The position numbers were made by a program, and so were the translations under genes. Positions 6,342 through 59,570 of a stretch of 64,000 bases of DNA are shown in pieces. The notes under the pieces are model-generated. The model did no database searches. It saw only the letters and a list, made by a program, of their open reading frames with translations, and was not told where the DNA came from. Location: assembly GCA_007376295.1 (NCBI GenBank), contig VMGB01000003.1, forward strand, positions 7,106 to 71,105. The letters are read 5' to 3'. Position 1 is the first letter of the stretch. The number at the start of each line of letters is the position of its first letter. The stretch is from Parcubacteria group bacterium Gr01-1014_13 (GTDB lineage Bacteria; Patescibacteriota; Patescibacteriia; Magasanikbacterales; GWA2-37-8).

Positions 6342-6447
6342 AATATTGCCCCCTCCGTAAATACGGAACGGGGGTATTTTTTTAAATATTTGCATTTTCC
6401 CTTAAGCGATGATAGTATTTCCCCAAACCCAACAGGGAGATAATCTA

Positions 6448-7326
6448 ATGGAAAATCTAGAAAAAGAAGTCATCCAACCATCGTTGGGTGATAAAGTAGG
6501 CAACTTCCTTGGATTTGTCGGTATCCATGTGGCCTGTATTTTTGCCATTTGGACCGGTGTCACTTGGCGTTCTCTGGTAATCGCTTTTGTGCTGTACTGG
6601 ACACGCATGTTCCTGATTACCGGCGGCTACCACCGCTACTTTGCTCATCGCTCTTACAAAACCTCGCGCGCATTTCAGTTTGTGCTCGCTTTCTTAGGCA
6701 CAACTGCTATGCAAAAAGGTACGATTTGGTGGTCGGCCAGACATCGCATCCACCACAAACATTCCGACGAGCCGGAAGATATTCACTCGCCGAAAGTGTA
6801 CGGCTTCTGGCAGGCGCATATATGGTGGTTCTTGGGAAATAAGCACGGAAGCGGTATCACTGATTTAAGCCGAGTAAAAGACCTGGTAAAATACCCTGAA
6901 CTACGCTGGCTCGATAAATACCATTGGGTAGCGCCAATCATGCTTACCGGCCTATGCTACTACTTGGATGGGTGGACAGGCCTGATCGTCGGCCTAGCCT
7001 GGTCTACCGTGATATTTTGGCACTGTACATTTTTGGTCAATTCTATTGCCCACATCTGGGGTAGTAGGCGCTACCAAACCAAAGATGATAGCCGAAATAA
7101 CTGGTTTATCGCTCTGCTCACTATGGGCGAAGGATGGCATAACAACCATCATCACCGTCAAGGTTATGCCAGACAGGGCGTTAAATGGTGGGAAATTGAT
7201 ACCACTTATTACATCCTGCGACTGCTCGCTCTGTTTCGTCTAATCCGGGACTTAAATCCCGTATCTAAAAATAAACTGAAAAGTGATCCGGTCGAAGAAA
7301 CGGCCGTAGAACTTACAGCTCCTTAA
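6448..7326 (+). CDS. Acyl-CoA (delta-9-like) fatty-acid desaturase, membrane-bound
   Basis: Three histidine boxes are present: HRYFAH, HRIHHKH, HNNHHH. TM helices. Start chosen at the ATG preceded by GGAGA. Confidence 0.8.
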   Translation: MENLEKEVIQPSLGDKVGNFLGFVGIHVACIFAIWTGVTWRSLVIAFVLYWTRMFLITGGYHRYFAHRSYKTSRAFQFVLAFLGTTAMQKGTIWWSARHRIHHKHSDEPEDIHSPKVYGFWQAHIWWFLGNKHGSGITDLSRVKDLVKYPELRWLDKYHWVAPIMLTGLCYYLDGWTGLIVGLAWSTVIFWHCTFLVNSIAHIWGSRRYQTKDDSRNNWFIALLTMGEGWHNNHHHRQGYARQGVKWWEIDTTYYILRLLALFRLIRDLNPVSKNKLKSDPVEETAVELTAP

Positions 7327-15478: not shown

Positions 15479-16290
15479 ACACTAGGAATATTCTCAATAA
15501 TCTTTTTCATGTCAATAAAAAAACTTCCAAACACCCTCTTGAAGCTTTCGACGCTTAGGCATTTCTCATTTTCACATGTCGGATCTTCAAGCTGTCTAAA
15601 TCCGTTTGTAATTGCCGCTTGCTGATGGTGTGTAACACCGGTAAAAAATTGATAGTATTTTTTAATTTTAGAACATGATAATTCTATTGTTTCAAAAAGC
15701 TCTACTGTTATTGCGCCTTTTTTAAAAAGATCTTTCAATGTTTTACCGAAATCATCTTCGTTGGCAGAAAATATTGAAAGCATTTCTCGAATAGAGGAGG
15801 CTGCATGCTCTCTCCACTCCTCATTATAATTTTCAGACCCAAATGCAAATACTGCCCCACGTAAATGACGGCGGTGGTCATTTGTCACACCTTTCGCTGG
15901 ATAGCTCTCTGGACGTAATCCATCCAACTTTAATCTAGATAAGTTATAAACTAAAAGACTTATTTTATTTATATCTTCTTCTGATATCCCCAACTGTTTG
16001 AATCCAACCTCATAAAAATTAACTATTTTTTCCTGCACTTCATTTCCTTCTAACAAATCATTGGAATTACCAATGCCAGGAGAACTAAAGTAATAGTTAA
16101 CAATTTTATCTCTACCAACGTTTTCACCAGACGATCCAGCAACATAAGAATTTTGTTCTTTTTTAGAAAAACGAAAAATAACCTTGCTGATCAACTCTTT
16201 ACCGCCAAATAAAGCAAGGATGGCTAGTAAAATCTTTAAAATCGTATCTATTACATCAGACATAATTCTGGTTAGGGTCGTTGAAACCAC
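15475..16290 (-). CDS. Hypothetical protein with a single N-terminal TM helix (271 aa), first gene of the operon
   Basis: IDTILKILLAILALFGG TM segment. Stop overlaps the next start. Confidence 0.5.
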   Translation of the reverse strand: MVSTTLTRIMSDVIDTILKILLAILALFGGKELISKVIFRFSKKEQNSYVAGSSGENVGRDKIVNYYFSSPGIGNSNDLLEGNEVQEKIVNFYEVGFKQLGISEEDINKISLLVYNLSRLKLDGLRPESYPAKGVTNDHRRHLRGAVFAFGSENYNEEWREHAASSIREMLSIFSANEDDFGKTLKDLFKKGAITVELFETIELSCSKIKKYYQFFTGVTHHQQAAITNGFRQLEDPTCENEKCLSVESFKRVFGSFFIDMKKIIENIPSV

Positions 16291-16450: not shown

Positions 16451-18634
16451 TTAGTAAGCAAAGAACAAATGAGCGTCAACCTGTTGAAAACTACCGCTTC
16501 CAATCTTTAGGAAGAAAAGCAGTTCCCAGTTTCCTGGCCCGGGGTTTGCAAATTCTGGGAAAAACCAGGACTCACCATTACTCGCTGGCAAATATGGACC
16601 AAAGTCCCAACTCCACCCAAGCGTACCGCTGTGATACGCCTCGATGCGGAACTGGACGTTGGTATTGACGGCGAGCCCGGTAAAGCGCAACCGCCAGTAG
16701 TAAGTGCTAAGCGACGAAAGCGAGCTTTGGCTAGACACTGGCGTCCAACACTGCGGCACTCCGTTTGCATCACGTTCGTTTTGATAATTACCGAGACAAA
16801 CATTGAACGAGCTGGAGGTGTAACCTCCAATGGGCGCGTTCACCGTAAAGGTAATATCCGACCGAAGCATTTGCCAACCGCCGCCGACATCGATTTCCAC
16901 CGATGCTCGCCAATTACCGCTAAGCGCATACCATAGGGTCGGCCAAGTATAAGCCGTACTCCAGACTTGTCCAGATGGTACAGTGGTCCAATCACTTACT
17001 TGTTCGGAGTAAACCGTCGAGGAACCATTGCGGTAAAACCGCGAACGGAACCTATACGACTGCCGAACATCCTGCACAAAGGACAACACACGAACGTTCT
17101 GCCCTTGCGAGAACACCGTTGCTGGTCTGGGGCAGGTATAGATCCAGTTGGTACTTTGTCCACCAGTAGGCTCATTGGAACATGTTACCGCGTTGCCATT
17201 GTAGATGAAAGGTGCTACTGGATTTACCGTAAACGGAATGATGGCTACATTTACATTCTCGAATTCCGTTCCACCGGGCAAATCAATATCTACCCGAGCT
17301 TCATAGGAACCAGAGATAACATTTCCAATTGTTGTCCAGTAATGCGCGTATTGCCAAGTCTCACCAGTTGGAACGTCGTTCCATCCAGTAGGACTGGTGG
17401 TATACAAAAAGGAACCATTGTGAAAAATCCGCGCGCGGAACCGATGTGAACTGGTCACATTGTCGATTCGCATCAGTACGGTTACGTTATCGCCTGCGGC
17501 ATAAGAACTCTGCTGGCCGTTACAGGTGTAAATCCAGTTCGTACTGGCTCCACCGGTGACAGAACCATTACAGTTGTAGTTGTTGCCATTGTACTGATAT
17601 GGCGAACCTGGCCATTGCTGACTACCTCCTGGGACAATGAAATGAAACGTGGTCAGCTGGAAAGGCCCGCTGCCAGTATTCGCGTAAATTCGCATATCCC
17701 AGTCACCAGCATAGACGTTGTTGAATCTGGGCAAATAGAACGCATGTGGCCACACATTCGGCTCCACCTGCAACGCACTATCTGTCCATGTCCAATCAGG
17801 TGATGACTGTCCGAGACGCCACGCTTCAATGCTGAAGGCGACATTCCTTTGGACATTGTCGACTCTGATGACCATGTTGGCATTCTGTCCAGGCTGAAAA
17901 ACAGTCTGACGATTCTGGCAACTGTAGATCCAGTTTGTGCTTTCTCCGCCAGTTACCGCATCGGTACAACCATAGACGTTATTGCTGTCTAGATTGAACT
18001 GAAACGAACCTTGCCAAGCGGGAACGCCTGGGATAGAAAGGTTTGAGTTCGCGGCGTATGACGGTGCCAATTCGAAATGGATGTGATCCACGTGCGGGAT
18101 TGGACCAGAGTAGATAGCCACCCTGCTAGCACTTGGACCAGAGGTGGTATATTGGGTTTTGTCCCAAACAAGAAACTGAACACCCAATGTTCCAGCATTA
18201 CTGATCAACCAGTTCGCAATTGGGTCACCAACACTGTTGTCCGCAGCGCCATTATCCATTGGGATATGAATATCCAATGCCCAACCAACACCATGGGTGG
18301 ATGTTTGCGATAGATTGGCTGTATTTGGCCTACACCAATACGTTTCGATTCTGGAGATACCAGAAAAAGCTCCCTTAACGTATTCAGCCAACTTAGTAGT
18401 GCCTGGAAGGAGGCCGCCACTACAACTTGATCCGTCGGCCGCCCATGCAGGCGGAACCATCATGTTGATTGTGACTCCTGCGGCCGCATTGAGAGCATCC
18501 GACGAAGGCGCGTAGTTGCCGGAGATGGCAACTGATTGCTCCACACTTTCCTCCCTATCCTTGCGATCATCGCTAGCGCAAGCCGCTACAATGAACGCTA
18601 CAATGAGAAGAGCTGCTTGTATTGATCTCGACAT
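16451..18634 (-). CDS. Lipoprotein M15/LAS-family zinc peptidase (peptidoglycan hydrolase-like) with three C-terminal repeats of about 110 aa
   Basis: Lipobox IVAAC. STHGVGWALD (H-x6-D) and VDHIHFE (HxH) zinc-ligand motifs. Three repeats each contain C-x3-TGG-x-STNWIY-[ST]-C. The gene has much higher GC than its flanks. Start chosen at the second ATG, which has a purine-rich RBS. Confidence 0.6.
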   Translation of the reverse strand: MSRSIQAALLIVAFIVAACASDDRKDREESVEQSVAISGNYAPSSDALNAAAGVTINMMVPPAWAADGSSCSGGLLPGTTKLAEYVKGAFSGISRIETYWCRPNTANLSQTSTHGVGWALDIHIPMDNGAADNSVGDPIANWLISNAGTLGVQFLVWDKTQYTTSGPSASRVAIYSGPIPHVDHIHFELAPSYAANSNLSIPGVPAWQGSFQFNLDSNNVYGCTDAVTGGESTNWIYSCQNRQTVFQPGQNANMVIRVDNVQRNVAFSIEAWRLGQSSPDWTWTDSALQVEPNVWPHAFYLPRFNNVYAGDWDMRIYANTGSGPFQLTTFHFIVPGGSQQWPGSPYQYNGNNYNCNGSVTGGASTNWIYTCNGQQSSYAAGDNVTVLMRIDNVTSSHRFRARIFHNGSFLYTTSPTGWNDVPTGETWQYAHYWTTIGNVISGSYEARVDIDLPGGTEFENVNVAIIPFTVNPVAPFIYNGNAVTCSNEPTGGQSTNWIYTCPRPATVFSQGQNVRVLSFVQDVRQSYRFRSRFYRNGSSTVYSEQVSDWTTVPSGQVWSTAYTWPTLWYALSGNWRASVEIDVGGGWQMLRSDITFTVNAPIGGYTSSSFNVCLGNYQNERDANGVPQCWTPVSSQSSLSSLSTYYWRLRFTGLAVNTNVQFRIEAYHSGTLGWSWDFGPYLPASNGESWFFPEFANPGPGNWELLFFLKIGSGSFQQVDAHLFFAY

Positions 18635-18729
18635 TTTTTCCCTTTTTCCTTTTCTACGCACCATGCGTGCCTAGATGATATACAATAAAAAAAGAACCGT
18701 CAATGTTGCTTGACAGCTCTTTTTTTAAT

Positions 18730-34430: not shown

Positions 34431-34484
34431 AGGATAAAATCTGATTGACTAATTAGCGTAATTAAGTATATAATACAACCTATA

Positions 34485-36992
34485 TTGAGTCAAAAAATAC
34501 CTACTATGTCTAGTATTGTAGACAGATTTTCAACTCATCTTCGTGCAGTTTTGGTAGGCAGTATCCGCATTGCCACCGAACTAAAAAACACATCGGTAGA
34601 ACCGATCCATCTTTTGTTGGCTTTATCTACGCAAAAAGGGTCGGTAGCCAGCGAAGTCCTGAGCCGCTACCACCTGGATACAAAAAGCATAGAAAAAATT
34701 GCTGTAAAATTAAAGCCTGGGACTGGATCAGGGCAAAATAAAAATTTATCGCCATTTTCTTTAAATTCCAAAACTGCTTTAGAAAAAGCCCTTATTGTCG
34801 CCCAAAAGAATGGACACAACTATTTGGGCACCGAACATCTGCTTTCGGCTTTAGTAAATCTCAACGATCCGCAACTGGAACAGTTATTTAAAAAGAATAA
34901 CCTCAAAAAAACAGAGCTAAATGATCAATTGGAAGTAGTACTCACCACAGCTTCGCAGTTTCCACAAATTACCGAGATACCAGAAGCAATCAATCGCCTA
35001 CAAGAAACCTTATCTGATGATGCGATGCTCCATACAATCCTGCCTAATGATAAAAAAACCAAGAAAAAAGAGGCAGCTTTAGACTTTTTTGCAGCCAATC
35101 TCACCAGTCAGGAAATCCAGTCTGGAATTGATCCGGTAATCGGCCGCGAAAACGAAATTGAACGCATGATGCAAGTGCTTTGCCGCCGGACAAAAAATAA
35201 TCCGATACTTCTCGGTGATCCGGGTGTAGGTAAAACCGCTATCGTGGAAGGTCTGGCTAAAAGAATTGCTGCCGGTGAAGTACCTGATGTTTTGCTTGGC
35301 AAAAAAATATACGCTCTGGATATGGGCTTGCTTATTGCCGGTACTGCTTACCGCGGAGAATTTGAGGGTCGCTTGCGCCAAGTAATCGAAGAGGTCAGCA
35401 GCGATCCAAATATAATTTTATTTATCGACGAACTGCACAACATTGTTGGCGCTGGTTCAAACCAAGGCACAATGGACGCAGCCAATATCTTGAAACCGGT
35501 ATTAGCACGCGGAGTTATTCGCTGTATTGGCGCAACCACGCTCACTGAATTTAAAAAACATATTGAAAGCGACCCGGCCTTAGAAAGACGCTTCCAACCA
35601 ATTATTATCAAAGAACCATCCGTGGAAGATACTATAAAAATTCTCATGGGTATCAAAGATAATTACGAAAATTTCCATAATCTAAAAATCACTAATGAAG
35701 CAATTGTAAAAACTGTTCAGTTGTCCAATCGCTATATCACCAACAAACTTCTGCCTGATAAAGCTATAGATCTGCTAGATGAAACTGCGGCGGCCAAACG
35801 CTTGTCTGTCAAACCAACTCTGGCAGAATCAAGGTTGCTGCGTTTAAAAAACGAACTGGCCAAAACTACAACGGCCAAAGAAATTGCCGCCGGACACGAC
35901 AGATTTTCTGAAGCTGTAAAATTAAAAGAAAAAGAAAAAATTATTGAACAGGAAATAAAATACTATAAAGAAAAAATATCTACCCAAAAAATTCCCAAAA
36001 CCGCATCTACTGTCACCGAAAAAGATATTATTAACCAGCTGGCAAAGATTATCGAGACTCCGATTCGCGATCTGTTTATAAACGAAAAATACGACTTTCC
36101 ATTTGAATCCGAGCTGCAAAAACATATTATCGGCCAAGATGAAGTTTTACGCGAAGTTGCGCAAATTATCCGTCAGGCCAAACTAGAACTTTCTAATCCC
36201 AACCGGCCGCTCGCTTCATTTTTGTTTGTTGGTGAAAGCGGTGTTGGCAAAACCGGGCTGGCAAAATCTTTAGCCGCAGCGCTTTATCCAAGCCAAAGTT
36301 CTTTTATTCAGCTCAACATGAGCGAATTTAACGAAAGTTTTGGCGTTTCCAAACTGCTTGGCTCTCCGGCTGGATATGTTGGCTATAAAGAAAGCAATCA
36401 GTTTACTGACCGAATTAAAATGAATCCGTACTGCGTAATTCTGCTGGACGAAATCGATAAAGCCCATAAAGATGTCACTAAACTTCTTTTGCAGATGTTG
36501 GAAAACGGGGAAATCACCGACTCAGTTGGTAAAAAAATATCCCTCAAACACGCCATAATTATTCTCACCACTTCTCTGGGAGCAGACGAACTGAAAAAAT
36601 CAAACATCGGTTTTGGTAAAGCCAAAGAAAATTCCGAAAATAAAAAAATAGTCAAAGACAAACTAAAAGATTTTTTCTCTGCCGAACTCATAAACCGATT
36701 AGACCAAATCTGCCTGTTTAACAGCCTCACCAAAACCGATTTGGCAAAAATAGCGGCTTTGGAAATTACTGAGCTCAACAAACAATTGGTGCCCTACAAT
36801 ACCGCTCTAGGTGCTGACGATGAAGTATTTGCTTGGTTCGTGGATCAGCTGGCCGAAAAAAATAACGCCCGCGAAGTCCGCCGCCAAATCAGAAACCATG
36901 TAGAAAAAATAATGGCTGAACTGATTGTGCAGAATAAAATAAAAGCCCAACACAAACTTGTTTTACAGGAAAATAAATTGTCCGTGAGATAA
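34485..36992 (+). CDS. clpC: Clp/Hsp100 ATPase, ClpC-like (two AAA+ modules)
   Basis: Clp_N repeats. Walker [10 protein letters not shown] and GESGVGKTG. Confidence 0.85.
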
Positions 36993-37001
36993 TTTTCTTC
37001 T

Positions 37002-37874
37002 ATGCCGGAGGGATCAGAGGAGCAAAAAAATTTGATGGGACAGCCCTCTGATATGGGCAATCTTTTGGCTGCCGAAAAAGCCAAAAGTGCCGGCGAACAG
37101 CGCACTGCAGATGCCGATAACTACGAACCTTACCAAGAACAGCCTGAAGAAGATGGTGGCGCTCAAAATCAAGTCGAGGAAGACCAAGACACAGAAGCCG
37201 AACAAGCCGAAAATCAACAGGCCCAGTTGGCCGCCCAGGAGCAAGCCGAAGTAGCCATAGCCATGGCGGCCGGAAAACAACGACAACAAAGACAGCTACA
37301 GGCGCAAAGACAAAAACTAGAAGGACAGTTGGAAGAGCTAGAAAAAGAATTAACGGATTTTAAAAATTCAAAACTGGGCGGATTCCTAAAAATTTTCCAA
37401 CCGAGAATAAACGTGCTGATAGATATTCTGATTGAACAGATGAAAAAGCAGGTAAATAAACTGGCTGACGAAGCCAAAATCGCTTTTTATACCGGCTTAA
37501 TTGTTACTATTACTAGTCTTATCGCCATTCTCACGGCCATGAAATTTCTGGCCGCTTTTTTAGATGCAGTTATCGTAGTGCCATATTCCTGTATTCGCCT
37601 GATAATCATGACTTTTTATACTTGTGTTATACCTATTATCCTAATCTTGATATCCCCTATTTACATATCATTTTTGGTAATACTATTTCTTATCGGCAAA
37701 ATCCCGTTGCTCAAGGGCACTTTGACTAAAGTCCTTACCGAAATCATTGAAAAATTAAAAAACCAGCGGACTGCTTGGCAAGCGGAGGTAGAAAAATTAA
37801 AGAAAAAAGTCACCTTAAAAAAACAGATCAAAAATCTGAAAAAGATGGAGAGCCAGATTACACGGGGACGGTAA
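37002..37874 (+). CDS. Hypothetical protein with Q/E-rich low-complexity N-terminus and C-terminal TM helices
   Basis: ORF and composition only. Confidence 0.4.
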   Translation: MPEGSEEQKNLMGQPSDMGNLLAAEKAKSAGEQRTADADNYEPYQEQPEEDGGAQNQVEEDQDTEAEQAENQQAQLAAQEQAEVAIAMAAGKQRQQRQLQAQRQKLEGQLEELEKELTDFKNSKLGGFLKIFQPRINVLIDILIEQMKKQVNKLADEAKIAFYTGLIVTITSLIAILTAMKFLAAFLDAVIVVPYSCIRLIIMTFYTCVIPIILILISPIYISFLVILFLIGKIPLLKGTLTKVLTEIIEKLKNQRTAWQAEVEKLKKKVTLKKQIKNLKKMESQITRGR

Positions 37875-37917: not shown

Positions 37918-39144
37918 ATGTCTCTGCGCAAAAAAATTATACTTAGTATTATTCTTCTTTTAGTAGCTGGTCTAATTGCTTATGGTTTATATTATATTTT
38001 CACCAGCACCGGAAAAATAGGCGAACCCACACCTCCTTCTGGCGAAGTTCTGCCTGGAGGTCAATTACCTGGATCTGGCGCTGGCCCTGCTACTACCACC
38101 GGAGTAACTCAGGGTCCGGGTGGAGAACTCTTACCAGTTTCGGGCATCATAGCTTCCACTAGCCCATCCTTTTACAAACCGGTTTCAGTTAGACAAGTAA
38201 TATCAGAAACCGCTACTTATCCTTCTTTGAATTCCGGGGGCGATTTTCGTTATTACAACGCCAATGATGGTAAATTTTACCGGGTAATGCCTGATGGCGG
38301 AATAAAAATGTTATCTGATCAAGTATTTTTTAATGCCCAAAAAGTTACCTGGGCAAAAAATCAAAACGAGGCTGTTATTGAATACCCGGACAGTTCAAAA
38401 ATAATCTACAATTTTGATACCAATAAACAAGTCACTCTGCCTAAACATTGGCAGGATTTTTCTTTCTCGGCCGATGGTTCTCAAGTTGCGGCCAAAAGCA
38501 TTGGCCTGGATCCATCCAATCGTTGGCTGGTCACTATAGATAATGACGGCTCCGGCGCAAAACTCATCGAACCAATGGGCGAAAACGCAGATAAAGTTAC
38601 AGTAAGCTGGTCTCCCAGCCAACAGGTAGTTGCTTTTTCCCAGACTGGCGAACCCCAAGGCGGAGAAAGACGCGAAGTTCTTTTCATAGGTTTAAATGGA
38701 GAAAATTTTAAATCAGCAATTGTGGAGGGCTCCGGATTCCAACCGCAATGGTCTACTACCGGAAAAAAGTTGTTATATAGCGTGCACAGCTCACGCAGTG
38801 ATTTTAAGCCGGAATTATGGCTGGTAGATGCCTACGGAGAAAATATTGGCAGCAATCGGCGTCTGCTCAAACTTAATACTTGGGCTGACAAATGCACTTT
38901 TAGCAATGACGACACCGCTTTCTGCGCTGTTCCCAGAGACCTTCCTTCCGGCGCTGGCATGGCTCGGGATATTGCCGCCTATAATTATGACGATCTATAC
39001 AAAATAGATTTAAAAACTGGCTTGAAAAGCCCCATACCTCTAAACGATAATTTTAATATTACTAATATTTCTTATAACGCTGGAACCAAAAAAATAATAT
39101 TTACCGATCTAAACAAAACCGGTGTCTTTGAATCTCAGTTATAA
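37918..39144 (+). CDS. Membrane-anchored TolB-like beta-propeller protein
   Basis: N-terminal TM, G/P-rich linker, repeated WD40-like beta-strand motifs. Confidence 0.45.
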   Translation: MSLRKKIILSIILLLVAGLIAYGLYYIFTSTGKIGEPTPPSGEVLPGGQLPGSGAGPATTTGVTQGPGGELLPVSGIIASTSPSFYKPVSVRQVISETATYPSLNSGGDFRYYNANDGKFYRVMPDGGIKMLSDQVFFNAQKVTWAKNQNEAVIEYPDSSKIIYNFDTNKQVTLPKHWQDFSFSADGSQVAAKSIGLDPSNRWLVTIDNDGSGAKLIEPMGENADKVTVSWSPSQQVVAFSQTGEPQGGERREVLFIGLNGENFKSAIVEGSGFQPQWSTTGKKLLYSVHSSRSDFKPELWLVDAYGENIGSNRRLLKLNTWADKCTFSNDDTAFCAVPRDLPSGAGMARDIAAYNYDDLYKIDLKTGLKSPIPLNDNFNITNISYNAGTKKIIFTDLNKTGVFESQL

Positions 39145-39145
39145 T

Positions 39146-39802
39146 ATGCCAAACCACAAAAAATTATATTTATTACTCTTGGCTATGGTGGCTTTGGCCG
39201 GAATTTTCTTTTACCGACAAATAATGCGTGCTCGACAAATCACTGTTGTACGCACTGAAGCCCCTTTAATTTCACCTAGCGTTATATTTATTCCAACTTC
39301 AGAATCCGAACAAACTTTGGGTAATCCAGGAGCAAACATTATCGTGACTGAATTTGTAGATATTGGCTGCGCTCGCTGTCTGTCTCTGCACTCCGCCATG
39401 AAACAATTTGTAATCAAACACCCTCAAGACATAAGACTGGTTTGGAAAGACAACGTCAAACCGGGAATTCTATCAGATCACACCTTAGCTCATCAGGCCG
39501 CGTATTGTGCTGGCAAACAAAATAAATTTTGGCAATTTTTGGATATCGCCGCTGGCCAACGAAATAATTTGGCAGAAGCAGGGCTGAAAAAAATTGCTCT
39601 GAATCTAAATTTAAACATAGAGGTATTCTGGCTCTGCACCAACAGCCCGGAAACAAAACAGGCTATCGCTGATTCTTCTTTGCAGGCTAGTCAGTTGGGC
39701 GTACGGTCATTGCCCGCTATTTTTGTGAACAATAAAATGATAAATACAGACAAAGATATAAATATCGAAGAAATGCTGACAAATTTTATTGTAAAGCCTT
39801 AA
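39146..39802 (+). CDS. DsbA-like thiol:disulfide oxidoreductase
   Basis: N-terminal TM, CARC (CxxC) active site, thioredoxin-like length. Confidence 0.6.
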   Translation: MPNHKKLYLLLLAMVALAGIFFYRQIMRARQITVVRTEAPLISPSVIFIPTSESEQTLGNPGANIIVTEFVDIGCARCLSLHSAMKQFVIKHPQDIRLVWKDNVKPGILSDHTLAHQAAYCAGKQNKFWQFLDIAAGQRNNLAEAGLKKIALNLNLNIEVFWLCTNSPETKQAIADSSLQASQLGVRSLPAIFVNNKMINTDKDINIEEMLTNFIVKP

Positions 39803-39809
39803 ACAAAAT

Positions 39810-41306
39810 ATGTTTTTCCGTAAGACCAAAAAAATTGTTCTGATTCTTTCATTGGTCTTTCTTTTTGTCCCCATTTTTTGGAACAGCCGCGCTGTAGCAG
39901 GTTTCTTCGATGATTTCGCTTGTCTAACTGGCAACGTCGGCAGTTGCACACAAATTGTGGAGGACATAAAAACATATACAGACGCGCTGTGCAAACAAAA
40001 ATGCGGCGAACGAGAATGCGAAGTAACAAGCAAAACTTCCAATGAAATAATCTTTGATGCCTTTACTAAAGGCGGACTCACAGCATTGGATCCGATAACA
40101 GACGTTGAATGTAAGGGCGCGGATGGTTCAGAGTTGTCTGAATTACAAGCAGATGTGGCTGGTGGTAAATATAAACCGACTCTGGAAATAAATATCCCCG
40201 GTTTAAATCTTAGCGATGTCCGATCTTCTACCGATGATACCGGCACCTATTTTTATATTGCCTGGATACCAGAATTAATCTCCGCTCTATACAAATTTGG
40301 TATTGCTATAGTAAGTATTGTGGCGGCAGTAGTAATTATTATCCAAGGTCTACGCGTGGTTACTTCCGGCGGTGGCGAAGGCAAAACTACAGCTTATAAA
40401 AAAATCTTCCAATCTGTAATAGGACTATTTATCGCTTGGGGTTCATACGCGATTTTGTATAATATTAATCCGGCGCTAGTGGAGTTTAATGCTTTAAAAG
40501 TAAAGGTGGTGGAGAGGGTAGATTTAGAAGCCAGCTTAGGTACTACAAATGTCGCAACTGGCGAAGAGAGTGGTGCTCCGGAACCAGGGAGCCATCCACC
40601 GACCACTATTCCCTGCCCATTCACGCTTATAGAAACGTCGGGGGATAAGGGCAGAGCGGAGTTTTACCAAAAACTTCAGACGAGCGGAGCGGTCACCGCG
40701 ACAACACCACGGGAGAAGACTGTGCAAATTGCCGACATCGCCGATGCCTGTAATATTAATCTCGGATCCTGCGGGCGGACTGCTGGAGCCATCGTTGCGC
40801 TCGCTGGCACCAACCCAAAAAACTGCCTCGACCCGGCAAGTGGAAACTGCAATGGCAGCTACAAACGACGAATCCGAGCTATTTCACAAAATCAACGACT
40901 ATACACTTATGGCTGGAGATGCTCGATCAATAAGAAGGAGTACCCAAATAACCCACCGCGTTCTAACTGTGTCAATACACCTCTGGAAGCTACAAAAATC
41001 ATACGCGACTACCTTAAAGCGCAGGCGGCTGCGGGTAGCCCAGAACTAAAGGGTTGGCCCGACGAGTGGGCCAACCAACTGCGACCAGGCGATTATGTCG
41101 TGTTTTATAATGGTAATGACGATCTCGTCGGATCGCATGCCGTAATTTTCATGGGATGGGCATCAGAAGGTCGCATGCAGGTAGTTCAAGGCGGTATGGG
41201 CAAATATACCAATCCTCCAAACAGCACTGCCAGCGGCACATGGTGCGTGAAAAGCTCGTGCGGCGAGTCCATGGTTCCACTACTCTACATTTACACTCCA
41301 GATTGA
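39810..41306 (+). CDS. Cys-rich secreted mosaic protein: VirB2/TrbC-like hydrophobic hairpin plus C-terminal NlpC/P60-CHAP-like hydrolase domain
   Basis: Signal peptide and more than 10 Cys. Two TM segments separated by RVVTSGGGEGKTTAYKK. C-terminus has ...GSCGRTAGAIV... and RPGDYVVFYNGNDDLVGSHAVIFMGW. The 3' half is visibly GC-richer. Confidence 0.55.
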   Translation: MFFRKTKKIVLILSLVFLFVPIFWNSRAVAGFFDDFACLTGNVGSCTQIVEDIKTYTDALCKQKCGERECEVTSKTSNEIIFDAFTKGGLTALDPITDVECKGADGSELSELQADVAGGKYKPTLEINIPGLNLSDVRSSTDDTGTYFYIAWIPELISALYKFGIAIVSIVAAVVIIIQGLRVVTSGGGEGKTTAYKKIFQSVIGLFIAWGSYAILYNINPALVEFNALKVKVVERVDLEASLGTTNVATGEESGAPEPGSHPPTTIPCPFTLIETSGDKGRAEFYQKLQTSGAVTATTPREKTVQIADIADACNINLGSCGRTAGAIVALAGTNPKNCLDPASGNCNGSYKRRIRAISQNQRLYTYGWRCSINKKEYPNNPPRSNCVNTPLEATKIIRDYLKAQAAAGSPELKGWPDEWANQLRPGDYVVFYNGNDDLVGSHAVIFMGWASEGRMQVVQGGMGKYTNPPNSTASGTWCVKSSCGESMVPLLYIYTPD

Positions 41307-41336: not shown

Positions 41337-42686
41337 ATGCAAAAAATACAATCTGTCTTTGCCTGCTCCAACTGCGGCGCTCAATTCCAAAAATGGACTG
41401 GGCGCTGTTTGGAATGTGGTAAATGGGGCACAATTGCGGAAACAAAAATAAAAGCAGAAGCTGAGAATAAAACTGGTACTGGTAATTACGCGCCGATAGA
41501 AATGATTGATCTCAAAAGCATAGATAGTAAAAAATTTGAGCGGCAAAAAACAAACATCGAGGAGTTAGACAGAGTCTTAGGGGGAGGGCTGGTTCCAGGC
41601 TCTCTTATTTTATTGGGCGGCGAACCAGGTATTGGCAAATCTACTTTAGCCCTGCAACTTGCCGCCATAATCCCCCATTCTTTATATATTTCCGGAGAAG
41701 AATCAGCCGAACAAATAAAACTTCGAGCTGAACGACTTAATGTGAAGTCAAACACTTTAAAACTTGGCAATGCCACAGCAATTGAGAATATAATTGAAAC
41801 TATAAAACAAAATAAAGAATGTACTTTGGCAATTGTCGATTCTATACAAACAATTTACGCTGCCGAAGTAGAAGGCGAAGCTGGGAATATAAATCAGGTT
41901 CGGGCCTGCACAGTTAAACTTTTGGAGTTAGCAAAATCTACCGGCAAAACTATTGTACTCATTGGCCAAGTAACAAAAGAAGGCACGGTGGCTGGACCAA
42001 AAACTTTAGAACATTTAGTGGATGCGGTTTTGTATTTGGAAGGAGATAAGTATCACATATTTCGCATCTTACGCGCGGCCAAAAATCGTTTTGGCTCTAC
42101 AGATGAAATCGGTGTATTTTCCATGGAAAGCCACGGCTTACAAGAAGTAAAAAATCCCTCGGAGGCATTTTTGGCCGGACGTGGCGAACCCGTTCCAGGA
42201 TCTACTATCACCTGTTTAATGGAAGGTAGCCGTCCAGTACTCGTAGAAATTCAAGCACTGGTAACGAAAACAAATTTCGGCTATCCACAAAGACGGGCTT
42301 CTGGATTTGATTTAAACCGCTTGCAGGTCCTTGTTGGCGTACTATCAAAACGAGCTGATTTACCACTTGATGCTTATGATATTTTTCTCAACGTGGTCGG
42401 CGGACTAGAAGCCAGCGAACCAGCCGCAGACTTGGCTGTGGTTTTAGCTTTAGCTTCAGCTCTAAAAAACAAAACAATCTCCAAAAACATCGCTTCCTTT
42501 GGCGAAGTTGGGTTAGGCGGCGAAATTAGACCTGTTTCCCAAACCGAAAAAAGATTAAATGAAATTAAAAAAATGGGATTTGCTTTCGCTGTTATCCCCT
42601 CTGCCAAAAATCCAACCAAGGTATCGGATATAAAAATTGCTTCAGTAAAAAATGTAAAAGAATTAGTGGAACAAATTTTAAAGTAA
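41337..42686 (+). CDS. radA: DNA repair protein RadA (Sms)
   Basis: N-terminal C4 zinc finger. RecA-like GGEPGIGKSTL. Lon-like C-terminus. Confidence 0.9.
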   Translation: MQKIQSVFACSNCGAQFQKWTGRCLECGKWGTIAETKIKAEAENKTGTGNYAPIEMIDLKSIDSKKFERQKTNIEELDRVLGGGLVPGSLILLGGEPGIGKSTLALQLAAIIPHSLYISGEESAEQIKLRAERLNVKSNTLKLGNATAIENIIETIKQNKECTLAIVDSIQTIYAAEVEGEAGNINQVRACTVKLLELAKSTGKTIVLIGQVTKEGTVAGPKTLEHLVDAVLYLEGDKYHIFRILRAAKNRFGSTDEIGVFSMESHGLQEVKNPSEAFLAGRGEPVPGSTITCLMEGSRPVLVEIQALVTKTNFGYPQRRASGFDLNRLQVLVGVLSKRADLPLDAYDIFLNVVGGLEASEPAADLAVVLALASALKNKTISKNIASFGEVGLGGEIRPVSQTEKRLNEIKKMGFAFAVIPSAKNPTKVSDIKIASVKNVKELVEQILK

Positions 42687-56039: not shown

Positions 56040-59000
56040 ATGCCTATAAAAAGAGTCTCTAAAGGAAGGATAATCCCAGAAAAAAAACCAGTAAAATCTT
56101 TAAAACCCAAAGTTAAAAAGATTTCCGCGCCTGCTCCTAAACCAACTCCCGCCCCCGCTAAAGTTATGGCAAACAAACCAAAAGCGAAAGTTTCCGACAA
56201 AGCTGATGCCAGCTATAGCGCCAAAAATATTACAATTTTAGAAGGTCTGGAAGCCGTACGCCGCCGTCCGGGCATGTATATTGGCTCCACTGGTCCGGTA
56301 GGTCTTCATCACCTAATTTGGGAAGTAGTAGACAACTCTATCGACGAAGCGATGGCTGGTTTTTGTACGCAAATTAACATCACTCTTTTGCCAGATCATT
56401 ATATAGAAGTAAAAGACAATGGTCGTGGTATCCCTGTAGATATTCATCCGCAAACCGGTGTCAGCGCTTTAGAAGTTGTACTTACCAAACTGCACGCTGG
56501 TGGTAAATTTGATGCTGGCAGTTATAAAGTTTCTGGTGGTTTGCACGGCGTGGGTGTTTCGGTAGTCAACGCTTTATCCACACACGTTAAAGCCGAAGTG
56601 CATCGCGACGGCAAAGTTTGGTTGCAAGAATATAAAAATGGCGGTAATCCGGTAAAAAAAGTTCATCAAATTGGTACTACCAAAGACCGCGGTACAATAA
56701 TTACTTTCCGAGCTGACGACACTATTTTTGAAACCATTGATTACGAATGGAAAACTATTATCGATCACGTTCGCCAACAAGTCTATCTGTCCAAAGGTAT
56801 TCGTATTGCTATAACCGATAAAAGAACTGGCGCGGAAAAAGATGCGGACAAAACTGCTTTGCCATTCCCCAACCCAACTTATCAATTTTACTTTGAAGGC
56901 GGTATCGCTTCATATGTTCGCCACCTAAACCAAAACAAAGAAGTCAAAAACGAAAATGTTTTTTATGTAGAAAAGGTACACGAAGATGTAAAAGTAGAAA
57001 TCGCTTTACAATACAGCGATGAATTTACTGAATCTTTGTTTGCTTTTACTAATAATATTTACAATCCTGAAGGCGGCACGCATGTGGCTGGTTTTCGTAC
57101 AGCCCTGACCCGAAGTTTAAACAGCTATGCGCGCAACAAAAATATTTTAAAAGAAAAAGACAGCAACCTGACTGGTGAAGACGTACGGGAAGGTTTAAAC
57201 TGTATAATTTCTGTCAAAGTTACTGAACCGCAATTTGAAGGTCAAACCAAAGCCAAATTAGGAAACACCGAAGTAAAAACTGCGGTTGAAGCCGTGATGA
57301 ATGATGAATTTTTGGTCTTCCTGGAAGAACACCCGAAGGATGCCGAAGGCATCGTTGGTAAATGTTTGCTCGCTGCCCGCGCTCGCAATGCGGCTAAAAT
57401 CGCCCGCGATACTATTTTGCGTAAAGGTGCTTTGGAAGGATTTACTCTGCCTGGAAAATTAGCAGACTGCAGCAGCCGACGCGCCGAAGAATCTGAATTG
57501 TTCATTGTGGAGGGAGATAGTGCGGGTGGATGTTGGGATGGAAATACACTAGTTGCGCTTGCTGATGGCAGAGCCTTGAGTTTTAAAGAAATTATAAAAG
57601 AACAATCTGAAGGCAAAGAACATTTCTGTTATACCATAAGAAATGATGGAAAAATTGGCTTAGAAAGAATTATTAATCCGCGCCGAACAAAAACAAACGC
57701 TACGGTTATTAAAATCACTCTTGATAATGGAGAAATTTTAACTTGCACACCGGACCATCTTTTTATGACACGAGATGGAAGTTATAAACAAGCCCAACTT
57801 TTGACTGCGAAAGACTCTTTAATGCCACTATACAAAAAAATCTCGAATAAAAAAGAAAGGGGCATCACCATTGACGGGTATGAAATGGTGTGGGATCCAA
57901 AATCTGATTCCTGGCTATTTACGCACATGCTAGCTGACTGGTACAACAGATGGAAAGGTGTTTATAAAACTACAGATGGCGATCACCGCCATCACATGGA
58001 CTTCAACAAACGTAACAACAACCCTTCAAACTTGCTTAGGATCTCAAAAGAATCCCATTTGGAATTACATAGAAAACATGTAAGCAAAACATTGCATAGA
58101 CCGGATGTTATTGAAAAATGCAGAAAAATAAAACAGGATCCACAATTTCGAACAGCAATGAGCGCGCGCATGAAGCAGCCGGAAACAGCGGCTTTGCTTT
58201 CAAAAAATGCAAAAAAACAATGGCAAAATACAGAATACAAGAATTACATGACCAAAAAATTCTTAGAATTCTATAATAACAACGAAGAATACCGCCAAAA
58301 AAATAACGAGTTGCTGAATAAAGCCCAACAGAAGTATTGGAGCGATGAAGTAAACAAAATCAATCAAGCCGAGAGGGTTACAAAATTCTTTGAGGAGCAT
58401 CCTTATAGAAAGGAATGGTTAAGAGAACTAGCCGCGGCGCAATGGAATGACTCAGACTTAAAACAATGGCGTTCCGAAAAAACAAAGGAGCAATGGACGC
58501 TGGAATTCCGCACCAAACGACGTGAAGCATATAACCAGACTTACCTCCAGAACAGTTTGGCGTTTGCCAAAAAAATCTTGGAGCAGGGTCAGGATTTATT
58601 TGTGACATATAATCTGACCCGAAAAAATCTGCCGAAACGCGACAATAATATAGTCAAACTAGAAACTCTGCTTGACCGATTTTTTGCCGGAGATAAAAAT
58701 CGTCTACTTGAAGCCACAACTAACTTCAATCATAAAATAACAAAGATTGAAAAGGTAAAAGAAAAAATTGATGTATATGACATTGAAGTCCCAGGAACTC
58801 ACAATTTTGCGCTTGCTTCCGGAATATTCGTGCATAATAGTGCCAAGCAAGGACGTGACCGTGAACACCAAGCCATCTTGCCTCTGCGCGGTAAAGTTCT
58901 TAATGTTGAACGCGCTCGTTTAGATAAAATTCTCACCAACAACGAATTAAAATCACTCATCATTGCTATGGGCACAAATATTGGCGAAGCGCTTGATATT

Positions 59001-59570
59001 TCCAAACTTCGTTATCATCGCGTAATCATCATGACCGATGCTGATGTCGATGGCGCGCATATCCGTACTCTTCTGCTTACATTTTTCTATCGTTACTACC
59101 CAACGCTAATTACCGGTGGACATATTTTGATTGCCCAGCCGCCGCTATATAGTTTGAAGTATGGCAAGAACATGAAGTACGCTTATAACGACGAAGAAAA
59201 AGAAAAAATACTTCTTGAAATTAAAAATACATCTTCTGCCAATTCCTCTGCTAAAGCTGCGGCTAAAAAAGCAATGGTAGGAGCGTCATCTCCAGAAGAA
59301 GCTGGAGAAACTGCTGAAGGCGAAGTTCAAGGATTAGAAATAAATGGCATTAAAGTAAATATTCAGCGCTATAAAGGTTTGGGTGAAATGAACCCTGAAC
59401 AACTTTGGGAAACTACCATGAACCCAAAAAATCGCATGATGAAAAGAGTGACTATTGAAGACGCTGAACTGGCCAATGAAGTTTTTGAAATCCTAATGGG
59501 TGATGAAGTAGCTCCACGCAAAAAATTCATCCAAACTCATGCCAAATCAGTAAGTAATTTGGATATTTAA
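56040..59570 (+). CDS. gyrB: DNA gyrase subunit B interrupted by an in-frame intein, with a K/P-rich N-terminal extension
   Basis: GHKL ATPase motifs. Toprim EGDSAGG...SAKQGRDR is split by a 436-aa insert. Confidence 0.9.
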   Translation: MPIKRVSKGRIIPEKKPVKSLKPKVKKISAPAPKPTPAPAKVMANKPKAKVSDKADASYSAKNITILEGLEAVRRRPGMYIGSTGPVGLHHLIWEVVDNSIDEAMAGFCTQINITLLPDHYIEVKDNGRGIPVDIHPQTGVSALEVVLTKLHAGGKFDAGSYKVSGGLHGVGVSVVNALSTHVKAEVHRDGKVWLQEYKNGGNPVKKVHQIGTTKDRGTIITFRADDTIFETIDYEWKTIIDHVRQQVYLSKGIRIAITDKRTGAEKDADKTALPFPNPTYQFYFEGGIASYVRHLNQNKEVKNENVFYVEKVHEDVKVEIALQYSDEFTESLFAFTNNIYNPEGGTHVAGFRTALTRSLNSYARNKNILKEKDSNLTGEDVREGLNCIISVKVTEPQFEGQTKAKLGNTEVKTAVEAVMNDEFLVFLEEHPKDAEGIVGKCLLAARARNAAKIARDTILRKGALEGFTLPGKLADCSSRRAEESELFIVEGDSAGGCWDGNTLVALADGRALSFKEIIKEQSEGKEHFCYTIRNDGKIGLERIINPRRTKTNATVIKITLDNGEILTCTPDHLFMTRDGSYKQAQLLTAKDSLMPLYKKISNKKERGITIDGYEMVWDPKSDSWLFTHMLADWYNRWKGVYKTTDGDHRHHMDFNKRNNNPSNLLRISKESHLELHRKHVSKTLHRPDVIEKCRKIKQDPQFRTAMSARMKQPETAALLSKNAKKQWQNTEYKNYMTKKFLEFYNNNEEYRQKNNELLNKAQQKYWSDEVNKINQAERVTKFFEEHPYRKEWLRELAAAQWNDSDLKQWRSEKTKEQWTLEFRTKRREAYNQTYLQNSLAFAKKILEQGQDLFVTYNLTRKNLPKRDNNIVKLETLLDRFFAGDKNRLLEATTNFNHKITKIEKVKEKIDVYDIEVPGTHNFALASGIFVHNSAKQGRDREHQAILPLRGKVLNVERARLDKILTNNELKSLIIAMGTNIGEALDISKLRYHRVIIMTDADVDGAHIRTLLLTFFYRYYPTLITGGHILIAQPPLYSLKYGKNMKYAYNDEEKEKILLEIKNTSSANSSAKAAAKKAMVGASSPEEAGETAEGEVQGLEINGIKVNIQRYKGLGEMNPEQLWETTMNPKNRMMKRVTIEDAELANEVFEILMGDEVAPRKKFIQTHAKSVSNLDI
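57531..58838 (+). mobile_element. GyrB intein (436 aa) with an HNH homing-endonuclease domain
   Basis: Starts with Cys (CWDGNTLVALADG). Ends ...GIFVHN followed by Ser(+1). Internal DHRHHMDFNKRNNNPSNLL...HLELH HNH motif. Confidence 0.75.

Follow-up and report, generated by a model that had tools for sequence, protein, structure and literature searches.

A predicted membrane-hairpin protein with a replaced C-terminal domain in a conserved clpC-radA gene block of a Patescibacteria genome

We analyzed a stretch of 64,000 nucleotides (hereafter the window, numbered from its first letter) from contig VMGB01000003.1 of Parcubacteria group bacterium Gr01-1014_13. The organism is an ultra-small groundwater bacterium from a Magasanikbacteria-like lineage of the Patescibacteria, or candidate phyla radiation (CPR). 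An open reading frame (ORF) at 39810-41306 on the plus strand encodes a protein of 498 amino acids (aa), identical in sequence to the NCBI entry "Uncharacterized protein G01um101413_722". The protein consists of three modules, and its C-terminal domain (C-domain) was replaced in this lineage by a divergent version. An earlier note, made from the DNA letters alone, had described it as a mosaic, Cys-rich secreted protein with a grafted hydrolase domain. The gene contains the following features, from 5' to 3':

39810..39899, plus strand: signal peptide, aa 1-30, with predicted cleavage after AVA (inspection and hydropathy)
39900..40172, plus strand: optional Cys-rich N-terminal module, aa 31-121, 6 Cys (homolog comparison)
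40173..40529, plus strand: conserved core, aa 122-240, with beta-hairpin, helical hairpin and boundary motif (BLASTP, PF18895 and an AlphaFold2 (AF2) model)
40552..41270, plus strand: high-GC island, the replaced C-domain cassette (GC 0.531 against 0.406; GC at third codon positions (GC3) about 0.50 against 0.35)
40605..41303, plus strand: C-terminal extracytoplasmic domain, aa 266-498, 9 Cys; putative papain-like Cys-His hydrolase of an unannotated family
40770..40772, plus strand: TGC codon of Cys321 (GSCGRT), putative nucleophile, invariant in 164/164 aligned sequences
41136..41138, plus strand: CAT codon of His443 (GSHAVIF), putative general base, invariant in 165/165

In a BLASTP comparison of the 498-aa protein with 94 database homologs, the modules have different homologs among them, which bears out the mosaic description. 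The signal peptide and Cys-rich module (aa 1-121) are common to about a dozen of the 94, the core (aa 122-240) is present in all of them at 42-87% identity, and the C-domain (aa ~262-498) was found in about 30. The Cys-rich module occurs only in homologs P0010, P0013, P0018, P0022, P0025, P0030-32, P0034, P0035, and P0052, several of the proteins that share it bear other C-termini (C39_2, Amidase_2, or VanY), and the proteins of loci L001, L003, and L005 lack it.

The N-terminus, MFFRKTKKIVLILSLVFLFVPIFWNSRAVA followed by G, reads as a Sec signal peptide on inspection, and hydropathy agrees (segment 5-33), as the earlier note had proposed. The protein has 15 cysteines. Six are in the N-domain (38, 46, 61, 65, 70, and 101), none in the hairpin, and nine in the C-domain (269, 314, 321, 339, 347, 371, 387, 479, and 484); the statement that more than 10 lie in the N-terminal third was incorrect. 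Cys content is 3.0%, about four-fold that of 29 other window genes (0.7%), and the family median is 3.03% irrespective of the type of C-domain. AF2 confidence is low over the N-terminal module.

The core is modeled by AF2 with two long helices, aa 152-185 and 189-219, linked by the loop TSGGGEGK, in agreement with the two transmembrane (TM) helices and short G/K-rich loop read earlier from the sequence. The loop region, TSGGGEGKTTAYKK, is short, basic, positively charged, and Gly-rich. Also in the core are a beta-hairpin at aa 137-150 and a boundary motif, NINPxLVxFxALKV. The combination of signal peptide, two hydrophobic helices, and short basic loop, seen by inspection, hydropathy, and AF2, is that of pilins. 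PF18895, the Pfam family of type IV secretion system (T4SS) pilins, matches 78 of the 94 homologs at E <= 0.01 (best E 8.8e-11), and one homolog also reaches TrbC (PF04956, E 0.0035). The hairpin is of pilin type at the level of the family, so that much of the earlier pilin-like assignment stands; for the 498-aa protein itself it does not, since its score of 20.3 bits is below the gathering score of 26.6. A Foldseek search with the model of the N-domain and hairpin (predicted local distance difference test score, pLDDT, 63) returned generic helical hairpins only and speaks neither for nor against VirB2. Core identity among close relatives is 66-87%, on par with housekeeping neighbors. This conservation exceeds the need of a passive anchor and suggests that the hairpin has a specific partner: itself, small VirB2-like pilins, or membrane proteins of the same operon.

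GC content changes within the gene. A single changepoint lies at 40551 (aa 247), where GC rises from 0.409 to 0.525 and GC3 from 0.35 to 0.50; GC1 and GC2 are also higher in the C-domain, by 0.07 and 0.12. A scan with two boundaries across the dsbA-radA interval places the high-GC island at 40552-41270 with a log-likelihood ratio (LLR) of 18.3, which none of 100 block shuffles reached (maximum 14.0). The highest-GC 800-bp stretch of the window is found here (z 3.2). The rise that the earlier note had placed near 40.5 kb, with a scan inside the ORF as the suggested check, is thus present.

The affinity of the sequence to its homologs switches at the same place. In a sliding comparison the crossover falls at aa ~236-245, and the GC changepoint is within ~10 codons of it. 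From aa 235 to aa 245 the similarity to the core-like homologs drops (0.85 to 0.27), and the C-domain-like set becomes the more similar one. Across 27 homologs that carry the same C-domain family, higher identity in the core goes with lower identity in the C-domain (Spearman -0.76, p 5e-6). P0010, for example, is 87% identical in the core and 30% in the C-domain, and P0004 is 42% and 58% identical. Flanking genes and core rank the relatives in one order, with L006/L007 closest (ClpC 77%, RadA 87%, core 74-80%), followed by L003/L005, L004, and last L001 (ClpC 45%, RadA 54%, core 46%). The C-domain reverses this ranking: L001 has 53%, L004 36%, and L003 30%. The L001 locus has a GC content of 61%. 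Orthologs with the same domain in L001, L003, L004, and L009 have no comparable breakpoint (LLR 1.7-3.5). The L008 gene, 83% identical, has the same breakpoint (LLR 10.2), on which basis we rejected a recent graft private to the window genome.

The GC3 island coincides with the affinity switch at aa ~240, and we conclude that a divergent allele of the C-domain, from a distant lineage of higher GC, took the place of the original one. We regard this replacement in the window lineage as shown, together with the architecture, the conservation, the synteny, the breakpoint, and the phylogenetic incongruence. A graft by recombination had been suggested from composition, and the GC3 shift at the domain boundary, the affinity crossover, the anticorrelated identities, and the opposed ranking of the flanks support it.

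The gene is located in a block that runs from clpC to radA and includes these features:

34445..34474, plus strand: sigma-70-like promoter (TTGACT, 18 nt, TATAAT) before clpC, 11/12 consensus positions, a consensus match only
34485..36992, plus strand: ClpC/ClpB-type AAA+ chaperone, first gene of the block (Pfam Clp_N, AAA, AAA_lid_9, AAA_2, and ClpB_D2-small)
37002..37874, plus strand: 290-aa protein with acidic Q-rich N-terminus, coiled coil, and hydrophobic (TM) block, no significant Pfam match
37918..39144, plus strand: 408-aa protein with N-terminal TM anchor and TolB/PD40-like beta-propeller (faint PD40/beta-propeller Pfam matches, on orthologs only)
39146..39802, plus strand: membrane-anchored DsbA-like thiol oxidoreductase, CxxC motif C-A-R-C at 39368-39379
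41337..42686, plus strand: RadA/Sms, last gene of the block (Pfam Zn_ribbon_LapB, AAA_25, ChlI, and Lon_C)

The promoter-like site is the best within 34-43 kb and the single strong one, and no intergenic terminator-like site was found on the plus strand from this site to the end of radA. It probably marks the start of an operon, judging from its match to the consensus. Intergenic gaps in the window are 7-43 nt; dsbA ends 7 nt before the hairpin gene, and radA begins 31 nt past its stop codon. Near the block, the opposite strand encodes RecG, a PilB-type ATPase, a 321-aa protein, and FtsH. In Firmicutes, clpC and radA are linked in the ctsR-clpC-radA operon. The pair is kept here with four or five envelope genes in between.

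The dsbA-like gene starts at the ATG at 39146 (the longest ORF starts from a GTG at 39122). Its product matches Thioredoxin_4 (E 1e-12, 49 bits, gathering score 23.2) and DSBA (E 6.5e-10, 39.5 bits, gathering score 25.6). It contains an N-terminal hydrophobic anchor (LYLLLLAMVALAGIFFY), the CARC motif at aa 75-78, and a candidate cis-Pro loop, SLPA, at aa 188. From these signatures we predict a DsbA-type thiol oxidoreductase with oxidase activity, and the membrane-anchored CxxC protein noted earlier directly upstream is thereby recovered. DsbI of H. pylori led us to consider the beta-propeller as a redox partner of DsbB/DsbI type; the propeller has only one TM segment and no DsbB-like match, and we left this as an idea.

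Seven loci with gene tables (L001, L003-L007, and L009; ClpC 45-77% identical to that of the window) share one gene order: in some cases PGM, then ClpC, a 160-340-aa protein, a ~410-aa propeller, DsbA, one or more hairpin genes, and RadA, followed by RecG. PilB and FtsH come next in those that extend far enough. The 290-aa protein has a homolog at the equivalent position in relatives (27-52% identity). The propeller is as conserved as ClpC (72-80% and 68-77% in close relatives).

A scan of GTDB with one genome per species gave 75 loci, mostly from Magasanikbacteria, 73 of them with a tblastn core match of at least 60 aa. In 53 of 62 evaluable species loci, the gene immediately before the hairpin gene encodes a DsbA homolog, which answers the earlier suggestion that co-conservation with dsbA be checked, and the propeller is likewise upstream in 53/62. 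RadA is downstream in 45 of 60, and DsbA and RadA both flank the gene in 40 of 52. Loci with neither neighbor are mostly more distant hairpin matches in other CPR groups. Many metagenome-assembled genome records with the syntenic locus (L011, L013, L014, L016, L018, L020-L023, L076, and others) are titled "uncultured Gammaproteobacteria bacterium", "Candidatus Udaeobacter sp.", or "Bdellovibrionales bacterium"; on this CPR-specific, Magasanikbacteria-like locus, such titles are probably taxonomic mislabels.

C-domains are interchangeable at this one slot, and its conservation with dsbA is operon-like. In the seven loci, the slot is occupied by the C-domain family of the 498-aa protein (L001, L003, L004, and L009), C39_2 (L005), Amidase_2 (L006), or VanY and SLT (L007). 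Among the 94 homologs, the domains found in the C-domain position include Peptidase_C39_2 (14 proteins), SLT (12), Amidase_2 (9), VanY (5), GDSL (4), M15_4 (4), M23 (3), metallophosphoesterase (1), and CHAP (1). Eleven GTDB loci, such as L025, L026, L032, L034, L037, L044, L048, L049, and L051, have two tandem hairpin genes between dsbA and radA, and many relatives have such pairs with C-domains that differ from each other. One tandem pair, at 6552-7994 of L007, encodes VanY and then SLT in two genes; another, at 6814-7974 of L003, encodes an unannotated domain containing Cys and His and then the C-domain family of the 498-aa protein. The hairpin-hydrolase gene is a vertically inherited member of an operon flanked by housekeeping genes, not the lone exported effector implied by the earlier note.

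We found no T4SS gene in scans of the window or in the flanks of L001, L003-L007, and L009. The window scan covered 26 ORFs with Pfam (nearly all those of at least 300 aa), and the genes with a match are all housekeeping genes; on this basis we rejected a location in a T4SS or mobile island for the window. A more distant family member at 814-7837 of L073 (Candidatus Moranbacteria UBA4824) has another setting. This locus encodes a VirB4-like ATPase of 605 aa (TraG P-loop, E 8e-31) and a 942-aa protein without a Pfam match, and then, three genes downstream of the ATPase, a 324-aa protein with a T4SS_pilin hairpin and SLT. A T4SS locus can therefore also hold a protein of the hairpin-hydrolase architecture. 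A third genomic context of the hairpin family is seen at 3821-7543 of L070, where a 251-aa T4SS_pilin protein (E 1.3e-7) is encoded between two genes for pyruvate:ferredoxin oxidoreductase subunits, with DsbA 2.3 kb upstream.

Other compositional features were seen in the window. The gene at 37002-37874 has a changepoint (LLR 11.9) that looks driven by composition: its first 101 codons (37002-37304) have a GC content of 0.53 and encode an acidic, Q/A-rich sequence. The gene at 37918-39144 also has one (LLR 9.5), and GC is 0.27 in its last ~54 codons (38980-39144). The only other long high-GC stretch is a 737-aa ORF at 16451-18664 on the minus strand (GC 0.50, GC3 0.50) without a Pfam match. 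It adjoins two low-GC ORFs on the same strand, 12533-15478 and 15475-16290 (GC 0.34; 981 and 271 aa; no Pfam match), and the region may be a foreign or surface-protein island. A fatty-acid desaturase gene at 6409-7326 on the plus strand has a GC3 of 0.50, compared to ~0.35 for most genes, and is a candidate horizontal acquisition. GyrB (56040-59570, plus strand, 1176 aa) contains an intein (Pfam Intein_splicing, aa 506-933) between DNA_gyraseB and Toprim.

The C-domain is absent from the domain libraries searched (Pfam, NCBIfam, and PHROGs). A profile search of 1.84 billion representative proteins found it in 244 clusters at 50% identity. The hairpin core is present in 145 of 165 family members and in each of them precedes the domain; the other 20 are short, probably truncated proteins. 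Conservation scored over the 165 members confirms the invariant Cys and His already visible in an alignment of 26 sequences. Gly427 is conserved in 165/165 and Asp428 in 164/165. At position 460, 135/165 members have Q, E, N, or S, and this polar residue is a candidate for the third member of a triad.

The AF2 model of the C-domain has a pLDDT of 87.9 and a predicted TM-score of 0.87. Cys321 directly precedes a helix (78-87 of the domain model), and His443 opens a strand (198-208) that is followed by a second strand. A Cys at a helix N-terminus and a His opening a strand form a papain-like arrangement, and this placement by secondary structure would fit a papain-like dyad. The domain also contains a PGD...G-H-a-h-h-F-h-G-W motif that we take, from inspection, to resemble the His motif of NlpC/P60 and CHAP.

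For 26 members of the C-domain family, Pfam, NCBIfam, and PHROGs gave nothing above threshold. The sub-threshold Pfam matches are to CHAP (E 0.04, 1/26 members) and Amidase_6 (E 0.11, 2/26), both of which are cell-wall amidase/peptidase families. The whole protein and the 26-sequence C-domain profile gave only spurious antibody and micronemal matches among PDB sequences. Foldseek with the C-domain reached a best E of 0.02 in the PDB and 2.8e-3 in BFVD (TM-score ~0.2-0.3), with no match at or below 1e-3. The weak neighbors ranked at the top in both libraries are mostly CHAP, phage lysin, C51, NlpC-P60, and papain-fold proteins, and the lists also include IdeS/Mac-1 proteases, phytochelatin synthase, glutathionylspermidine amidase, and LRAT. 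A relationship to C39, which has a similar G-C-G motif, was rejected (hhalign against Peptidase_C39_2 domains of paralogs, probability 0.3).

On this evidence we consider the C-domain likely, not demonstrated, to be a papain-like Cys-His hydrolase nearest to CHAP/NlpC-P60. The family is not assignable to the CHAP or NlpC/P60 Pfam families. It is restricted to the CPR, with ~244 clusters, and probably forms a new branch among the papain-like wall hydrolases. The earlier NlpC/P60-CHAP assignment, for which a hidden Markov model (HMM) search was the proposed check, therefore fails at the level of HMM and PDB sequence matches, and keeps weak backing from the non-significant Foldseek ranks and the invariant Cys and His.

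We favor, with a probability of about 0.6, the interpretation that the 498-aa protein hydrolyzes the cell wall from a membrane tether, depends on DsbA, and has had its catalytic domain swapped. The signal peptide would be cleaved and the Cys-rich N-domain would lie outside the membrane. The hairpin would then span the membrane twice, with the basic loop in the cytoplasm and the 240-aa C-domain outside again; this out-in-out topology is a prediction based on the signal peptide and, under the positive-inside rule, on the R/K residues of the loop. We predict that the C-domain is a very divergent papain-like (CHAP/NlpC-P60-type) enzyme that uses Cys321 and His443 to cut peptidoglycan, a substrate suggested by the domains that substitute at the same position and by the weak CHAP-like fold signal. 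The other eight C-domain Cys and the six of the N-domain may be oxidized to disulfides by the membrane-anchored DsbA, because the Cys-rich parts are predicted to be outside, Cys enrichment is family-wide, and the genes are adjacent.

In this interpretation the gene belongs to a vertically inherited operon made up of clpC, the genes for the coiled-coil TM protein and the TM beta-propeller, dsbA, one or two hairpin-hydrolase genes, and radA. The conserved hairpin would serve as a carrier, with an exchangeable "warhead" behind NINPxLVxF: Amidase_2, VanY, SLT, M23, C39_2, GDSL, M15_4, or the C-domain found here. On the simplest reading, an ancestor of the window organism and L008 had a P0010-like protein with a native C-domain, and everything behind NINPxLVxFxALKV was swapped for an allele that is ~30% identical to the native copy and came from a distant Patescibacteria clade of higher GC. 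The replacement left the GC3 island at 40552-41270, an insert that has been only partly ameliorated. The enzyme may act on the cell's own wall (in growth, division, or making room for type IV pili (T4P) or T4SS) or may attack the wall of the host.

Several points weigh against this interpretation. No significant sequence or structure match joins the C-domain to any hydrolase family in Pfam, NCBIfam, PHROGs, PDB, or Foldseek searches, the putative Cys321-His443 dyad is assigned from conservation and secondary-structure placement, and papain-like Cys-His folds also cover proteases, transglutaminases, and acyltransferases. The match of the protein to PF18895 (aa 152-210, E 5.9e-4) is the sub-gathering one described above. 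The whole clpC-radA block is syntenic, so adjacency of dsbA alone is no proof of an enzyme-substrate relation. No C-domain donor above 58% identity was found among the homologs.

The GC rise could instead reflect local amino-acid composition or selection in a vertically inherited gene, without horizontal replacement. The gains in GC1 and GC2 would fit this, as would the changepoints of similar LLR in the two genes that follow clpC, at 37002-37874 (with its acidic, Q-rich N-terminus) and 37918-39144. However, GC3 rises by 0.15, orthologs with the same domain lack the jump, the breakpoint is within ~10 codons of the affinity switch, core and C-domain identities are anticorrelated over 27 homologs, and no block shuffle matched the LLR of the island. 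We rejected amino-acid composition as the mere cause of the jump and regard this account as very improbable. In another reading, the C-domain would still be a Cys-His enzyme of papain type, but its substrate would be something other than peptidoglycan, and the hairpin would be only an anchor. Candidates are a maturation peptidase or other protease, a cross-linker of the transglutaminase type, and an acyltransferase, with surface proteins or lipids as substrates. The lack of a significant match to peptidoglycan hydrolase families would be expected then, and IdeS/Mac-1, phytochelatin synthase, glutathionylspermidine amidase, and LRAT in the weak Foldseek list point the same way. Sister architectures with metallophosphoesterase (one) and GDSL esterase (four) are not classical muralytic enzymes. 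Most annotated alternatives are nonetheless cell-wall enzymes (Amidase_2, VanY, M15_4, M23, and SLT; the commonest, Peptidase_C39_2, is annotated only as a papain-like peptidase), the best-ranked structural neighbors in both libraries are CHAP or lysin domains, and the His motif presumably resembles that of NlpC/P60 and CHAP. We therefore find a non-muralytic enzyme quite improbable.

The hairpin might also work as a true pilin module that enters the base or pilus of the T4SS, probably as a minor or tip subunit, and displays an exchangeable wall-degrading domain towards the host cell of the epibiont, with warhead swaps reflecting adaptation to differing host wall chemistries. We judge this possible but unlikely. 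The predicted topology leaves the two ends of the hairpin outside the cell, the same orientation in which conjugative pilins expose their termini. The hairpin belongs to the T4SS_pilin family, and the L073 Moranbacteria protein combines it with SLT near a VirB4-like ATPase. Genomes with a RadA at least 87% identical to that of the window have entirely different C-domains at the same slot, a turnover that resembles the evolution of effectors or polymorphic toxins. T4SS and VirB2-like pilins are widespread in the CPR and are essential for epibiotic growth in Southlakia, where peptidase and lysozyme homologs adjoin virB4 (10.1101/2025.01.22.634366, PMC10633639). Modular type IV pilins provide a conceptual precedent (PMC8179133). 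Against a pilus module are the scans of the window and the seven sets of flanks, which contained no T4SS gene, and the membership of the gene in a housekeeping-flanked, vertically inherited operon. No immunity gene is next to it (radA is 31 nt downstream), a 240-aa domain and a 90-aa N-domain per subunit would be hard to pack in a major pilin, and the present data contain no sign of polymerization. It would be bolder still, and we consider it doubtful, to see the hairpin as a genuine carrier of the Patescibacteria T4SS (a "modular VirB2-type pilin") and the operon as building a disulfide-stabilized surface device that presents warheads at host contact. If true, inter-lineage warhead replacement would track host cell-wall chemistry, and this would be the first effector-like cargo tied to the essential, functionally unexplained CPR T4SS/pilus.

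Under the favored interpretation of a membrane-tethered wall hydrolase, the locus bears on a general problem. A large part of bacterial diversity belongs to the Patescibacteria, which live attached to host cells, and how they remodel their own wall or breach that of the host is largely unexplained. The locus defines a carrier-plus-warhead design, in which a VirB2-like hairpin is combined with many alternative domains predicted to cleave peptidoglycan in one orthologous slot, and a conserved envelope operon that may couple these enzymes to a dedicated DsbA. It is also a clean, datable case of intragenic domain replacement between distant lineages, in which composition, breakpoint, and incongruence agree. 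If the hairpin ties the enzymes to the T4SS, the family offers testable candidates for the role of that essential machine in epibionts.

In the literature we found no account of hairpin-hydrolase or pilin-hydrolase fusions or of a clpC-radA envelope operon in the CPR. No close known system unites a VirB2-type hairpin carrier, interchangeable wall-hydrolase domains, a dedicated DsbA, and a core-operon location, and several share parts of this design. The C-domain resembles the CHAP and NlpC-P60 enzymes of clan Peptidase_CA in its Cys at a helix N-terminus, a strand His ~120 residues on, a polar residue after that, and a "PGD...H-hydrophobic" motif, and these enzymes are its top but weak structural neighbors. 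It differs in that no HMM, profile, or Foldseek match to them is significant. The ~120-residue insertion between Cys and His contains an extra helical subdomain, eight more Cys are conserved (presumably in four disulfides), and the domain is known only behind the hairpin module.

VirB1-type hydrolases of monoderm T4SS include PrgK of pCF10, TraG of pIP501, CwlT of ICEBs1, and CD419/TrsG. These are modular, membrane-anchored, extracytoplasmic enzymes with SLT, CHAP, NlpC/P60, or LytM-type domains. The hairpin family has the same domain repertoire, and one distant member is found in a VirB4 locus. VirB1-type enzymes have a single N-terminal TM or signal anchor and no two-helix hairpin, their genes are inside conjugation clusters, and the C-domain described here matches none of their HMMs.

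The VirB2-like pilins of Patescibacteria T4SS (PF18895; Quinonero-Coronel et al. 2025, Wang et al. 2023) are alike in the signal peptide, the two hydrophobic helices, the short basic Gly-rich loop, the family-level HMM match (78/94), and the confinement to CPR lineages. Known CPR examples are described as small, often in arrays, and often near virB4. In contrast, the 498-aa protein is longer and has an extra conserved beta-hairpin, the boundary motif, a Cys-rich N-terminal module, and a 240-aa C-domain that looks like an enzyme. Its gene sits between clpC/dsbA and radA, the scans of the 64 kb detected no T4SS gene, and the HMM score of the protein is below gathering.

Modular type IV pilins, such as PilB and PilC of Streptococcus sanguinis, are reported to comprise more than 1,200 proteins, with examples from several Candidatus (CPR-type) lineages (Raynaud et al. 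2021, PMC8179133). They share with the hairpin family a small carrier onto which diverse functional modules are grafted via a short linker. Their carrier is a T4P subunit with a class III signal peptide and one N-terminal helix, whereas the hairpin family has a carrier of VirB2 type, with two helices and a Sec signal peptide, and a cargo that is mostly predicted to be wall-degrading. Polymorphic toxins (CdiA-CT, Rhs) are similar in that a conserved carrier ends at a boundary motif behind which unrelated C-terminal enzymes are exchanged at the same locus. They come with an adjacent immunity gene; here none adjoins the gene, and radA is next in the window and in the syntenic loci examined. The cargo of the hairpin family would be wall hydrolases tethered to the producer's own membrane, and it is encoded in a core operon rather than in an accessory island.

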